Assembly: GCA_963663385.2 (NCBI GenBank)
Contig: CAXXXD010000001.1
Coordinates: 480,001-544,000, forward strand
Source: Oceanispirochaeta sp.
GTDB lineage: Bacteria; Spirochaetota; Spirochaetia; DSM-2461
Length of the DNA: 64,000 nt
Direction of reading: 5' to 3'
Part shown: positions 23,915-28,364 of the stretch, piece by piece
How positions within the stretch are numbered: the stretch's first letter is position 1
How the letters are laid out: each line of letters begins with the position of its first letter
Notes under the pieces: generated by a model
The model's input: only the letters and a program-made list of their open reading frames with translations
What the model was told of the DNA's origin: nothing
The model's database searches: none
Program-made: the position numbers and the translations under genes

Positions 23915-24919
23915 TTATTGAAAGTCGATCAGTTCGATATCGAATATCAGCCAGGCATCGGGAGGGATGGGGCCGTAACCTTTGGATCCGTAGGCCAGCT
24001 CAGGGGGAAGCAGGATGGTTCTCTGTTCACCCGGCTGCATGCTGAGGGCCGTTTCCACCCAGCCCGGAATCACTCCGTCCTCTCCCAGAGTAAAAGAGAA
24101 GGGTTCGCCTCTCAGGTAGGAATTATCAAACTCCTGTCCGGAAAGAAGGCGCCCTGAGTAGTGCATCTGAACGGTATTTCCGGGGCGGGGATTTCCGCCC
24201 TTTCCTTCCTTGTGCACCTTGTAATAGATTCCGGTTTCACTCTTTTGTACCCCTTCGCCGAGAGAGACCAGTATTTCGGCGACAACCGGGTATTTGCGGG
24301 CGAACTCCTCCCGGCTTTTTTCTCTGGCATCTTCTATCAGGGCTGCTACGCTGTTTCTGTCGGGCTGAAAAGCCTCCGCTTCTGCTCCGATTCTGAGAAT
24401 TTCAATTTTTGCTTTACTATTTTCCCTGATTTTACCCAGGACTTCCTGACCCTGGATAATTTTGGCAAAAGCAGTATATTTACTGTCCAGAAAAGCATCC
24501 CCCCCAATGAGAATCATAAACCGGCTGCCATGGTCTTCTCCCTGGCGGGAGGCCATGGTAATCGCACCCGGAGTCCCATTGGAATACTGTCCCCCGTTTT
24601 CCCGGGGAAAGGTATAATCTCCTTTTCCGTTGTCTTCCGCTTCTCCGGAGAAGAGAGCGTAACCGGGTATGACTTTATAGAATGAGAGATCCTCATAGGA
24701 GGACGTTTCCGTTTTATCTTCCGCATTGGCTACGAAGTTTGAAACGGTTAAAGGCAGATTTTCATAATCCAGCTGGAAAAGCAGATCGCCCTTGGCAGTG
24801 GATATTTTTGCATAAACCCCGTCGCTTAAAGCAGCCGTTTCTTCAGATGCCAGCATAAACATACCGGCAGTCAGAGTGATGAGGGTTAAAAGGATTCGTT
24901 TCATATAGGGTCTCTCCAT
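23915..24919 (-). CDS. Secreted cyclophilin-FKBP dual-domain PPIase with a divergent cyclophilin domain
   Basis: Signal peptide; FKBP motifs HYSG..FDNS..VIPGW..LAYG. Confidence 0.85.
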   Translation of the reverse strand: MERPYMKRILLTLITLTAGMFMLASEETAALSDGVYAKISTAKGDLLFQLDYENLPLTVSNFVANAEDKTETSSYEDLSFYKVIPGYALFSGEAEDNGKGDYTFPRENGGQYSNGTPGAITMASRQGEDHGSRFMILIGGDAFLDSKYTAFAKIIQGQEVLGKIRENSKAKIEILRIGAEAEAFQPDRNSVAALIEDAREKSREEFARKYPVVAEILVSLGEGVQKSETGIYYKVHKEGKGGNPRPGNTVQMHYSGRLLSGQEFDNSYLRGEPFSFTLGEDGVIPGWVETALSMQPGEQRTILLPPELAYGSKGYGPIPPDAWLIFDIELIDFQ

Positions 24920-24927
24920 ATCTCGTA

Positions 24928-25959
24928 TTAGAAATCCAGCAGTTCTATCTCAAAAACCAGCCAGGCATTGGGAGGAATCACGCCGCCGGCTCCGCGGCTG
25001 CCGTATGCCAGCTCGGGAGGAAGGATGATCGTTCTCTTTTCGCCTTTTTTCATATCCAGGAGGGTTTCGTCCCAACCGGAAATAACCTGTCCGACACCAA
25101 CCTGCACATCAAAGGGCTGCCCTCTCTGAACGGAGCTGTCAAAAACCTTTCCGTCCATAAACATACCAGTGTAGTGGGCTGTTACCTTTGTTCCGACAGA
25201 GGGTTTGTTTCCGGAGCCTTCCTTCTCGATTATATAGCGGATTCCGGAATCACTTACCTGAGCATCGGGCCATTTAACTTTGATCTCATCCAGAACGGTT
25301 TTCTGAGCCTCTTCCATAGCTGTTCTCGCTGCGGCTGCCTGTTCGGCCTGAAAGGTGTCAAAAGCATCCTGATCATTCCGGAAGGCTTCCGCCCTGGCGC
25401 CGACACGGATAATTTCTACGGTCTTTATGGTATCGTTCTGTTTGATCTTGTCTACCACATCCTGACCTTCCACAACCGTGCCGAAGATGGTGTGTTTTCC
25501 CTGCAGCCAGGGAGTTTCCACATGGGTGATAAAAAACTGACTGCCGTTGGTACCGGGTCCGGCATTGGCCATGGCCAGCTTGCCGGGACCGTCGAACACG
25601 AGGGAATCGGCGATTTCATCACCGAATTTGTACCCGGGACCGCCTGTTCCGTTCCCCTGGGGATCTCCGCCCTGGATCATGAAATTGTCGATAACACGGT
25701 GAAATTTCAGACCATCGTAGAAGGGACCCTCTTTTACGGGGGTGTCCATTTTCCCTTCGGCCAGCCCGGTAAAGTTAATTACTGTCATGGGGGTTTTTTC
25801 ATATTCCAGAGAGATCAGAATCTCACCCCTGTTTGTATCGATCAGAGCGTATAGGCCATCGCTCAAGTTGCTTCTGTCTGCTGCGCAAGCACTCATAATA
25901 GTTGATATGAGCAGCATTCCTGATATGAGATTTTTTTTCCCGAATAAGGGCTTACTCAT
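24928..25959 (-). CDS. Cyclophilin-FKBP dual-domain PPIase, probable lipoprotein
   Basis: [51 protein letters not shown]; lipobox-like MSAC. Confidence 0.92.
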
Positions 25960-26087: not shown

Positions 26088-27080
26088 ATGTATAGAAAAC
26101 AGAGGGAGCTAATAATGAAAACACAGCAGATAAAACAAAATCCCGGTTATCTAATTGCCATGCTCAGTGCACTGATTCTGTCAACAACAGGAATCTTTAT
26201 CGCATATCTGTCAAATGAGTTCTCCCTGCCTCCCATTGTTCTCTCTTTCTGGCGGGAGCTCCTGGTTTTCCTGGTTCTGCTGATTTATCTGCTGATCAGA
26301 AATCCCCGTGCTGTTGATCCTAAAGGAAAAAACTTTTCCCTGCTTATCCCTTATGGTGTGATTCTGGCGGTTTTCAATGCTTTATGGACCTTCTCGGTTG
26401 TTCTGAACGGAGCCGCTCTTGGAACATTCCTTGTTTATACCAGTCCGATTTTCACAGCGCTTCTCAGCCGCCTGCTGTTCAGGGATAAAATGAGTGCTCT
26501 CCATCTGATCTGCATTCTCCTGAGCCTTACGGGCTGTCTGTTTATTTCCGGGATTCTATCCGAATCGGGCGGGTCTGTTTCTCTATTGGGTCTGGTTATC
26601 GGCCTACTGGCAGGATTGGCCTATAGCGGGTATACCATTATGGGGAAACAGGCAGGTAACGGGGCCGCGGCGGACGATATCTGGGGAACCCTGTGCTGGA
26701 TCTTCGGGATTGCGGCGGTGTGCATGTTTTTTATGAACCGGCTGACTGCTTTTCTACCGTCCTCGGCCTACCCGCTGGGAGGAAGACTTCTGTATCTGGG
26801 CTCCTCTTACAAGGGGTGGCTTATTCTGTTTCTTCTGGCAGCCGTTCCGACTCTTACAGGATTCGGCTTCTATAACTTAAGCCTTAAGTACCTGCCGCCG
26901 CTAACTGTCAGCCTGATTGCTTCTTCAGAGCCGGCTTTCACAGCAGTTCTGGCCTATTTCCTCCTTAAGGAGAGGATGGATTCGTTTTCAGCACTCGGAT
27001 GCTGTTTGATCCTTCTATCGGTTATTCTGATTCAAACCGGGATTCCCGTATTCCGCCGGGCCGATTCCTTGACAGGATAA
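26088..27080 (+). CDS. EamA/DMT family transporter
   Basis: About 10 hydrophobic helices, YTSPIFT and SEPAFT motifs. Confidence 0.85.
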   Translation: MYRKQRELIMKTQQIKQNPGYLIAMLSALILSTTGIFIAYLSNEFSLPPIVLSFWRELLVFLVLLIYLLIRNPRAVDPKGKNFSLLIPYGVILAVFNALWTFSVVLNGAALGTFLVYTSPIFTALLSRLLFRDKMSALHLICILLSLTGCLFISGILSESGGSVSLLGLVIGLLAGLAYSGYTIMGKQAGNGAAADDIWGTLCWIFGIAAVCMFFMNRLTAFLPSSAYPLGGRLLYLGSSYKGWLILFLLAAVPTLTGFGFYNLSLKYLPPLTVSLIASSEPAFTAVLAYFLLKERMDSFSALGCCLILLSVILIQTGIPVFRRADSLTG

Positions 27081-27097
27081 TTGGCTGACGATACAAT
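27069..27097 (+). promoter_or_regulatory. Sigma70 promoter of the pheST leader
   Basis: TTGACA (27069-74), 17 bp spacer, TACAAT (27092-97). Confidence 0.8.
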
Positions 27098-27107
27098 ATC
27101 TCCCAAT

Positions 27108-27194
27108 ATGACAAAGCCCTTTTTCTTTTTTAATTTTTTTACTCACTTTTTCTTTTTCAGCTTTATAAGCGGGAAGAGGCCGGGGCTTTCATAA
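27108..27194 (+). CDS. Phe-rich attenuator leader peptide MTKPFFFFNFFTHFFFFSFISGKRPGLS (PheM-like)
   Basis: Manual translation gives 11 Phe in 28 codons, directly upstream of a terminator and pheS. Confidence 0.85.
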   Translation: MTKPFFFFNFFTHFFFFSFISGKRPGLS

Positions 27195-27211
27195 AGAACG
27201 TTTGTTCAAAT

Positions 27212-27269
27212 GAGCCGCAGAGGGTTTCTTCCCATAATGAGGATGGAAACCTGCTGCGGCTCTTTTTTT
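27212..27269 (+). terminator. Attenuator terminator of pheST
   Basis: GAGCCGCAG...CTGCGGCTC followed by T7; inner GGTTTC/GAAACC pairing. Confidence 0.85.
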
Positions 27270-27320
27270 GTCTGGTGTATTAAATGGAATCTAATATAAA
27301 TAAGGAATGAGAGGTCCAGG

Positions 27321-28364
27321 ATGGAACAGAATCTGGAAAATCTGAAAAATGAATTTGCCGAAGCCCTTGAAGCGGTGCAAGACCGTCCGGCGCTGGTAAA
27401 CCTGAAGGCGGATTTCCTGGGAAAGAAGGGAAAGTTGAATTCAATCCTTAAATCCCTGAAAGACGCTTCCCCCGAAGTAAAAAAATCTTTGGGAATGAAA
27501 TCCAATCAGCTGAAAGAGACAATACTGGCGGGAGTCGAAAAAAAAATGACCCAGCTGGAATTGTCTGAGATTAATGAGCGCCTGATGAAGAACTGGCAGG
27601 ATGTAACCCTCCGCGGATCAATTCGAGATAATGGTTTGAATGCAGCCGGCTATCATCCGGTAAGCATCATTCAGAGAGAGATAGAGGATATTTTTCTGTC
27701 CATGGGGTTTGAGATTCTGGACGGTCCCCATATTGAGGATGATTACCATAATTTTGAAGCCTTGAATATCCCCGAAACCCATCCGGCCCGTGATATGCAG
27801 GATACTTTCTGGTTTGCGGATATGCAGCACCTGCTGAGAACCCACACATCCTGTATTCAGGCCAGGGGAATGGAAACCCGGCAGCCACCCTTTAAATTCA
27901 TCGGTCCCGGTAAGGTCTTTCGCTGCGAAGCAACCGATGCATCCCATGAGGCGGCCTTTCATCAGCTGGAAGGGATGATGGTCGGAAAAGACATTTCCGT
28001 TGCCAACCTGATCTACTTTATGAAAACACTGTTGAGCGAGATTTTTCAGAAGGATGTCAATGTACGCCTTCGTCCGGGATTCTTTCCCTTTGTGGAACCG
28101 GGATTCGAACTGGATATCGAGTGCCTGATCTGCGGCGGCAAAGGCTGCTCTGTCTGTAAGCAGTCCGGTTGGGTGGAACTGCTTCCCTGTGGAATGGTTC
28201 ACCCCAATGTTCTGAAAGCCGGCGGAGTAGATCCGGAGGAGTATAATGGTTTCGCCTTTGGCCTCGGACTGGACCGCCTTGTTATGATGCGATACGGGAT
28301 TGATGATATCCGCCATCTGCACAGCGGAAATCTCTCATTCGTCTCACAATTTAAAGCGTACTGA
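27321..28364 (+). CDS. pheS: Phenylalanine-tRNA ligase alpha subunit (bacterial type)
   Basis: NFEALNIP..HPARDMQDTF, LLRTHTS, FHQLEG, FPFVEP, GFAFGLGLDR. Confidence 0.97.
   Translation: MEQNLENLKNEFAEALEAVQDRPALVNLKADFLGKKGKLNSILKSLKDASPEVKKSLGMKSNQLKETILAGVEKKMTQLELSEINERLMKNWQDVTLRGSIRDNGLNAAGYHPVSIIQREIEDIFLSMGFEILDGPHIEDDYHNFEALNIPETHPARDMQDTFWFADMQHLLRTHTSCIQARGMETRQPPFKFIGPGKVFRCEATDASHEAAFHQLEGMMVGKDISVANLIYFMKTLLSEIFQKDVNVRLRPGFFPFVEPGFELDIECLICGGKGCSVCKQSGWVELLPCGMVHPNVLKAGGVDPEEYNGFAFGLGLDRLVMMRYGIDDIRHLHSGNLSFVSQFKAY

Follow-up and report, generated by a model that had tools for sequence, protein, structure and literature searches.

The phenylalanyl-tRNA synthetase genes of Escherichia coli are controlled by ribosome-mediated attenuation, with pheM encoding the leader peptide of the pheST-ihfA operon. 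Attenuation through leader peptides is textbook biology, documented mainly in Proteobacteria and Actinobacteria, with a few cases in Firmicutes. The T-box binds uncharged tRNA directly and needs no translation. Here we describe a leader upstream of pheST in Oceanispirochaeta sp. (GCA_963663385.2, contig CAXXXD010000001.1, positions 480,001 to 544,000 of the forward strand; this whole stretch of 64,000 nt is referred to as the window). In our judgment it is very likely a ribosome-mediated leader-peptide transcription attenuator, by which pheST responds to charged phenylalanine (Phe) tRNA (tRNA-Phe). Sequence comparison and folding models indicate that the element is a real, conserved, and probably leaderless Phe-responsive attenuator in a spirochaete lineage. 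A sequence-only reading of this DNA had proposed the logic of pheM for a probable spirochaete, and that proposal appears to be supported by all of the in silico tests that were run.

The resemblance to E. coli pheM lies in the operon (pheST) and the logic, in a U-rich Phe tract that pairs with a purine-rich strand, in a short Phe-rich open reading frame (ORF; 14 codons with 5 Phe in E. coli), in an antiterminator set against an intrinsic terminator, and in the same response when folds are computed with a ribosome masking part of the transcript. The differences are also several. The E. coli ORF has a Shine-Dalgarno (SD) sequence and a 5' untranslated region (UTR), whereas the spirochaete ORF appears to be leaderless or nearly so; the latter is about twice as long, with 6-11 Phe codons, and is preceded by varied genes, whereas the E. 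coli ORF lies downstream of infC-rpmI-rplT. The terminator hairpin spans 41-51 nt in spirochaetes vs. about 24 nt in E. coli, and the spirochaete leaders have an extra helix (P0) that joins the 5' end to the stop codon region. A blastn search of the window leader against 5,426 E. coli genomes gave no match, and covariance model R1 at the E. coli locus (L081) gave only E = 2.4, at an unrelated site. The spirochaete leader is not a member of the pheM family: it shares with it neither sequence similarity, nor an SD-led ORF of 14 codons, nor genomic context.

T-box leaders of pheS in Bacilli and Clostridia control the same gene through a choice between terminator and antiterminator that reports tRNA-Phe charging; they differ in binding tRNA directly, without translation, and the window leader has no T-box match. 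A permissive Rfam search of positions 26900-27500 gave eight matches at E <=10, all far below gathering thresholds and none of them to the T-box. The best of these, the mir-35 model on the terminator hairpin (27212-27262; E = 0.0027, 28.6 bits vs. a gathering threshold of 70.2), is meaningless; long GC-rich hairpins attract microRNA models. The supplement of PMC2965389 counts 59 pheS candidates, of which 27 are T-boxes; the 46 pheS rows covered here come solely from Gammaproteobacteria, Betaproteobacteria, Bacilli, and Clostridia, and the ten of these rows labelled as peptide leaders are all from Gammaproteobacteria.

Leaderless regulatory ORFs are described for trpL of Sinorhizobium meliloti, in which the transcript is reported to begin at the start codon of the regulatory short ORF (PMC7298713), and for polycysteine short ORFs of mycobacteria (bioRxiv 10.1101/834739). 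In these systems, as proposed here, the cognate codons of a leaderless ORF report amino acid supply, although the amino acids are Trp and Cys, the regulated genes and phyla are others, and the leaderless start of the spirochaete leader is read solely from promoter spacing. Synthetase genes reported to be under leader-peptide control include trpS and leuS of Streptomyces (PMC1262725) and cysS of Rhodobacterales (PMC8632094); these likewise stand behind a short ORF with codons for the synthetase's own amino acid, and they differ in amino acid, taxon, and sequence, none having been reported in Spirochaetota. A full-text literature search, which did not cover the attenuation survey of Lopatovskaya et al. 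(2010), found no spirochaete pheST leader.

Promoter, leader ORF, and terminator

All counts given below refer to the best 80 of 537 loci confirmed in a pheS-based scan of one genome per species; 16 of the 80 are spirochaete-labelled, and the remainder belong mostly to Bacteriovoracaceae and their allies. The 450 nt upstream of pheS were scanned in 79 regions (78 loci and the window; L026 and L030 were too short), and nine leaders were compared: the window's own (WIN), L001-L005, L016, L050, and L046.

The window locus has the parts of an attenuator: a Phe-codon ORF, a terminator, an antiterminator, the ribosome geometry, and pairing between the Phe tract and region 2 (1:2 pairing; Table 1). 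The promoter (TTGACA, 17 nt, TACAAT) and the ATG at 27108 opening an ORF with 11 Phe codons stand exactly where the sequence-only reading had put them. The promoter overlaps the final codons of an upstream EamA-family transporter gene (26088-27080, + strand), within which the -35 hexamer lies. It is the sole promoter-like site in 26500-28000, with one found vs. 1.7 expected in shuffles, which is not above chance; there is no second such site between the terminator and pheS. Because the ATG follows the -10 hexamer by 10 nt and no SD precedes it, the window leader mRNA is probably leaderless or nearly so, with no more than about 3-4 nt of 5' UTR, as judged from promoter geometry. The earlier suggestion that there is no room for an SD, and that translation would be near-leaderless, extends to all nine leaders: every one has 35-40 nt between the start of the -35 hexamer and the ATG, which follows the -10 hexamer by 6-11 nt, and an SD-like tetramer precedes none of the nine leader ORFs vs. 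eight of the nine pheS genes.

TTY codons in the window ORF number 11 in the ATG frame vs. 6 and 7 in the other frames, and they peak in the ATG frame in eight of the nine leaders, L046 being the exception. Gaps within the ORF among the five close leaders are all of 3 or 6 nt. The T-rich tract is therefore frame-conserved in relatives, a property on which the earlier reading had staked its proposal. The outline of the peptide is kept, with a Phe-rich core and, in six of nine leaders, a P-G-L-like C-terminus; residues outside the Phe runs are poorly conserved, and NCBIfam and Pfam provided no accepted family for any of eight leader peptides.

The predicted intrinsic terminator at 27212-27269 is confirmed as a hairpin followed by a T7 tract, and a terminator was found in all nine leaders. 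A simple terminator scan did not list the window hairpin, because of bulges in the stem; a separate scan gave the energy shown in Table 1. The 5' arm of the terminator (27212-27233) acts as region 3 of the proposed switch, and it is complementary to the 3' end of the ORF in all nine leaders.

Table 1. Positions of features of the pheST leader region, in window coordinates.
Feature	Position	Strand	Details and evidence
Sigma-70-type promoter, TTGACA-17 nt-TACAAT	27069-27074 and 27092-27097	+	11/12 match
Leader ORF, 28 codons + TAA (27192-27194)	27108-27194	+	Translation MTKPFFFFNFFTHFFFFSFISGKRPGLS; 11 Phe (8 TTT, 3 TTC)
Helix P0, 5' strand (start codon + codons 2-5)	27108-27120	+	Pairs with 27182-27192; minimum free energy fold, RNAalifold, covariation
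Regulatory Phe-codon tract (codons 5-8, 10-11, 14-17, 19)	27120-27164	+	3' part 27151-27158 is strand 1 of the 1:2 hairpin
Region 2, switch strand, ending at the stop codon	27171-27192	+	Folds, duplex tests
Small hairpin (GAAC stem, 4-nt loop) between stop codon and terminator	27196-27207	+	In terminated and antiterminated folds
Intrinsic terminator: 51-nt bulged hairpin 27212-27262 + T7 27263-27269	27212-27269	+	Hairpin -32.3 kcal/mol; 52 nt before pheS
pheS Shine-Dalgarno, GAGAGG	27309-27314	+	6 nt before ATG
pheS, phenylalanyl-tRNA synthetase alpha subunit, 347 amino acids	27321-28364	+	Pfam
pheT, phenylalanyl-tRNA synthetase beta subunit, 805 amino acids	28380-30797	+	Pfam; begins 15 nt past pheS

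The leader ORFs of L001 (2279-2359; T10), L002, L003, and L050 contain uninterrupted T runs of 8-10 nt, lengths at which slippage during transcription or frameshifting by the ribosome could occur. For E. coli pheL, incidental frameshifting has been discussed (PMC3082878).

Competing structures and ribosome position

The minimum free energy (MFE) fold of 27104-27275 has an energy of -55.7 kcal/mol (z = -4.6), and none of 200 shuffles was as good. The window MFE fold and the RNAalifold consensus of the five close leaders agree on P0, the hairpin between the Phe tract and region 2, the small hairpin, and the terminator; the stem of the small hairpin is invariant and its loops are variable among these five. 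Region 2 has two mutually exclusive sets of partners. In one, 27172-27179 pairs with the Phe tract (the 1:2 hairpin) and 27182-27192 pairs with the 5' end (P0), the two together being predicted to form an anti-antiterminator; in the other, 27171-27188 pairs with the 5' arm of the terminator, which constitutes the antiterminator.

The sequence-only reading had paired AAAGCCC (27113-27119) with GGGCTTT (27183-27189), and these positions belong to P0, a conserved and covarying helix. P0 has an energy of -16.0 kcal/mol in the window. It occurs in eight of the nine leaders within the tested interval, with differing sequences, and in L005 its pairing falls just outside that interval; the numbers of shuffles as good, per 1000, are 17 (WIN), 58 (L001), 5 (L002), 23 (L003), 0 (L004), 743 (L005), 5 (L016), 27 (L050), and 3 (L046). 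The 1:2 hairpin between the Phe tract and region 2 is present in all nine. The nine-leader alignment was fitted to a covariance model built from the five close leaders, so that its statistics, which come moreover from related sequences, lean towards the structure; in this alignment P0 is 78.8% paired vs. 67.3% in shuffles (0/1000 as high), with 8 of 11 pairs changing on both sides (3/1000), the terminator is 91.6% vs. 79.5% paired (0/1000), with 13 of 19 such pairs (0/1000), and the 1:2 hairpin is 82.0% vs. 76.4% paired (7/1000), with 5 of 12 (102/1000).

For the antiterminator, the earlier reading had matched GGGAAGAGGCC (27171-27181) to GGTTTCTTCCC (27223-27233), and this pairing forms the core of the best duplex between region 2 and the terminator 5' arm in the window, at -27.4 kcal/mol. 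In the main duplex test, the upstream strand begins right after the Phe run and is compared with 1000 shuffles of itself. The duplexes range from -15.8 to -29.9 kcal/mol across the nine leaders, and at most 23 of 1000 shuffles were as good in eight of these (WIN 2, L002 1, L003 1, L004 17, L005 3, L016 0, L050 23, L046 0), with 74 in L001. The register of the antiterminator varies between leaders.

Full-length folds cannot tell ribosome states apart, and folds were therefore computed on truncated transcripts that end at the terminator loop, in which all nucleotides as far as 13 nt past the ribosomal A site were blocked. When the ribosome is stalled on a Phe codon other than the final one or two in each ORF, antiterminators of -20.7 to -31.6 kcal/mol form in seven of eight leaders, whereas only -2.8 to -7.4 kcal/mol remains when it stands at the stop codon. 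The eighth leader, L005, was mis-parsed; the stop codon marks the start of its antiterminator strand, whose duplex with the terminator arm has an energy of -15.8 kcal/mol. E. coli pheM, used as a positive control, gives -17.0 kcal/mol for a Phe stall vs. -5.7 kcal/mol at the stop codon. Folding of the alternative structures had been named as a check by the sequence-only reading, and the masked folds bear it out, with the antiterminator appearing on a Phe stall and not at the stop codon.

A mechanism can be proposed on this basis. When charged tRNA-Phe is scarce, the ribosome would stall on the Phe codons and cover or separate the partners of region 2 in the 1:2 hairpin and P0; region 2, thus freed, would capture 27212-27233 as RNA polymerase makes it, the terminator would not form, and pheST would be transcribed. 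When charged tRNA-Phe is plentiful, the ribosome would reach the TAA at 27192 and cover region 2, so that the 51-nt terminator hairpin would form and transcription would halt at the T7 tract. Without translation, P0 and the 1:2 hairpin would form first and should also lead to termination, which would be a kinetic step. The bases of the terminator arm that are transcribed first meet the portion of region 2 that also serves as the 3' strand of P0 (GGCUU/GAGCC in the window; GCUUUUC/GGAAAGC in L016). P0 may thereby gate nucleation of the antiterminator and, by burying the 5'-terminal AUG, might limit re-initiation.

Weighing the proposed attenuator against other explanations

Several results weigh against reading the leader as a Phe-responsive attenuator. 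The terminator is retained in every ribosome state in full-length equilibrium folds, so that read-through would depend on co-transcriptional kinetics. The truncated window transcript prefers the antiterminator even without a ribosome, at -30.4 kcal/mol against about -22 kcal/mol for P0, the 1:2 hairpin, and the small hairpin together (derived as the total of -54.3 minus the -32.3 of the terminator); termination without translation therefore lacks thermodynamic support and would have to be kinetic. In a first duplex test, the strand began 13 nt past the last Phe codon, which removes the core of region 2, and it was no better than shuffles in five of nine leaders, with at most 32 of 1000 as good in the other four (WIN 225, L001 291, L002 28, L003 32, L004 147, L005 4, L016 161, L050 449, L046 0); these weak duplexes imply that most of region 2 would be hidden by a ribosome that stalls at the final Phe codon.

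The comparative evidence has its own points on this side. The nine-leader alignment favours the structure to which it was fitted. The antiterminator does not covary column by column within it (71.1% paired vs. 70.7% in shuffles; 466/1000 as high); support for the antiterminator is per sequence only. For the five close leaders aligned with MAFFT, the terminated-state structure is 86.6% paired vs. 86.1% in shuffles (121/500 as high), and column-wise covariation of the antiterminator is matched by 208 of 500 shuffles; a slide control on the same five favours the given register (87% vs. <=59%). The terminator of L005 is weak (-10.8 kcal/mol), and the antiterminator is present in the free MFE fold of this leader. 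L046, with only 4 Phe, has more TTY codons in a frame other than that of the ATG. Half of the spirochaete-labelled loci (8/16: L007, L009, L040, L047, L048, L051, L054, and L062) are without the element. It is from sequence and folding that Phe-dependence, the position of the transcription start, and translation of the ORF are proposed.

That the switch is real but is set by a protein, a tRNA (in the manner of a T-box), or a small ligand, with the Phe-rich ORF a mere by-product of a U-rich pairing strand, strikes us as highly unlikely. The poly-U/C tract does pair with region 2, so that some T-richness is expected from the structure alone, and the other two frames hold 5-7 TTY triplets in the long leaders. 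By-product status does not, however, account for an ORF whose indels are multiples of 3 and whose ATG frame is the richest in Phe codons in eight of nine leaders, for an ATG fixed 6-11 nt after the -10 element in all nine, or for an ORF end that is never more than about 12 nt away from the 3' limit of region 2; nor was a T-box or any other Rfam family matched, and the regulated gene encodes the Phe-specific synthetase. Constraint on the ORF might instead reflect its product, a functional small hydrophobic Phe-rich peptide (for example, a membrane peptide) whose tiny gene ends at the hairpin while pheST is transcribed separately. The conserved outline of the peptide (Phe-rich core, P-G-L-like C-terminus in 6/9) accords with this, and trans-acting leader peptides are on record, such as peTrpL of S. 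meliloti (PMC7298713). We regard this explanation as highly improbable: the C-terminal codons that are conserved are those that also form the P0 and antiterminator strand, a constraint at the RNA level. Conservation of the peptide outside the Phe runs is poor, and no protein family was matched. Separate transcription finds no other promoter-like site between the terminator and pheS, and the terminator 5' arm is complementary to the 3' end of the ORF in 9/9 leaders, which a plain terminator does not need.

A sensor of general translation capacity, or of transcription-translation coupling, rather than of Phe specifically, would make use of the same RNA structures. Leaderless initiation together with a P0 that sequesters the start codon could tie the outcome to the speed of ribosome loading, and the equilibrium folds without a ribosome do not clearly favour termination. 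Such a sensor would have no need of a single codon family, whereas 6-11 Phe codons are kept in eight of nine leaders while other residues vary, and the element is linked to pheST in every case; we consider it very unlikely that general capacity is what is sensed in place of Phe. The two kinds of sensing are not mutually exclusive. Ribosome-mediated attenuation in response to charged tRNA-Phe thus remains our preferred explanation of the pheST leader.

Distribution, origin, and significance

A search of pheS upstream regions in relatives, which the sequence-only reading had suggested, recovered the Phe-rich leader (6-11 Phe, 20-28 codons) in 7 of the 16 spirochaete-labelled loci (L001-L005, L016, and L050), as well as a weaker form in L046, which has the same layout of promoter, ORF, and terminator with 4 Phe. 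The leader is absent from all 62 non-spirochaete loci that were scanned. At least 6 Phe within 12 residues were found in 8 of the 79 regions (the window, L001-L005, L016, and L050), vs. at most 5 in the other 71 and in all 79 reverse strands. The covariance model built from the five close leaders retrieved L050 (E = 6e-5), L016 (E = 1e-3), L046 (0.4), and L005 (0.9), and otherwise, across 516,116 bases, gave only reverse-strand matches on palindromic terminators and noise above E = 0.8. At the gathering threshold, Rfam gave no matches in 14 loci that lack the leader, including seven of the eight element-less spirochaete loci (all but L048).

Some partial resemblances were not accepted as leaders. 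The short F runs of L044, L051, and L047/48 come without the start or the terminator logic of a leader, and L007 has 4 Phe, far upstream. In L006 (Desulfogranum), an ORF with YFFLF has only ATA at the expected start; a promoter-like site is present as well, a terminator-like hairpin lies 47 nt upstream of pheS, and the locus may have a decayed or variant leader. The PheS of L005 is sister to that of L006 (Desulfogranum marinum DSM 2058), with a Shimodaira-Hasegawa-like approximate likelihood ratio test (SH-aLRT) value of 100.

In a quick tree built from 79 rows of PheS, without L013 and L043, whose extrapolated N-termini crossed a stop codon, leaders occur in three places: the window with L001-L004 (L046 nearby), L005, and L016 with L050; the deep branches are weak. 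The first 12 nt of the leader are common to L005 and L016, and this, along with the common promoter-to-ATG spacing, makes a single origin of the leader with later losses plausible, although not shown.

The PheS of the spirochaete lineage is 65-74% identical to many PheS of Bacteriovoracaceae and Halobacteriovoraceae. Spirochaete and Bdellovibrionota PheS interleave in the tree, in which L009 and L051 fall among Bdellovibrionota and the deep branches are weakly supported; this interleaving suggests transfer of pheS between phyla. The PheS of L076, on a contig labelled Sulfitobacter sp. (a Roseobacteraceae metagenome-assembled genome), lies inside Halobacteriovorax with a support of 99, and its upstream sequence is shared with L064 and L066; L076 is probably a binning error in that genome.

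The gene upstream of the leader varies: an EamA gene (+ strand) in the window, a divergent gene for a cyclophilin-FKBP peptidyl-prolyl isomerase (PPIase) in L001, L003, and L004, an MGMT-like gene in L005, and a GGDEF gene in L050. Because these neighbours differ, the element appears to travel with pheS, and the hairpin is not simply the terminator of a neighbouring gene. In the window, tandem genes for fused cyclophilin-type and FKBP-type PPIases of 334 and 343 amino acids lie at 23915-24919 and 24928-25959 (both - strand); the same fusion gene adjoins the pheS leader divergently in L001, L003, and L004. The leader of the window is separated from the PPIase gene by the EamA gene, for which L001 shows no counterpart ORF of at least 80 codons; even so, the roughly 35 nt that precede the -35 hexamer of L001 (approximately 2171-2240) are similar to the EamA 3' end in the window, suggesting either the remnant of a deletion or an insertion difference. 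A scan of the window for other pairs of a terminator and an amino-acid-rich short ORF returned only the pheST leader.

We also advance, tentatively, a more specific proposal than Phe-responsive attenuation itself: that these leaders are an independently evolved family of leaderless Phe attenuators of Spirochaetota whose sensor includes translation initiation itself. One strand of the anti-antiterminator (P0) would then consist of the AUG at the 5' terminus together with the first codons, paired to the last codons of the ORF, and the 3' strand of that helix would also be the nucleation site of the antiterminator. Loading of a ribosome at the 5' end would open the gate, and its release would close the gate and block a second ribosome, such that each transcript would make a single-round decision timed by leaderless initiation.

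A pheST attenuator without similarity to pheM would extend the leader-peptide mechanism to another phylum, and points to convergent invention. For annotation, it would add a gene of 20-28 codons and a regulatory RNA that are overlooked by gene callers and by Rfam. The leader would also provide a compact model, found in nature, of leaderless sensing, in that the start region of the regulatory ORF forms part of the RNA switch itself, and it may offer a handle on gene regulation in spirochaetes of marine waters and sediments, most of which are uncultured.

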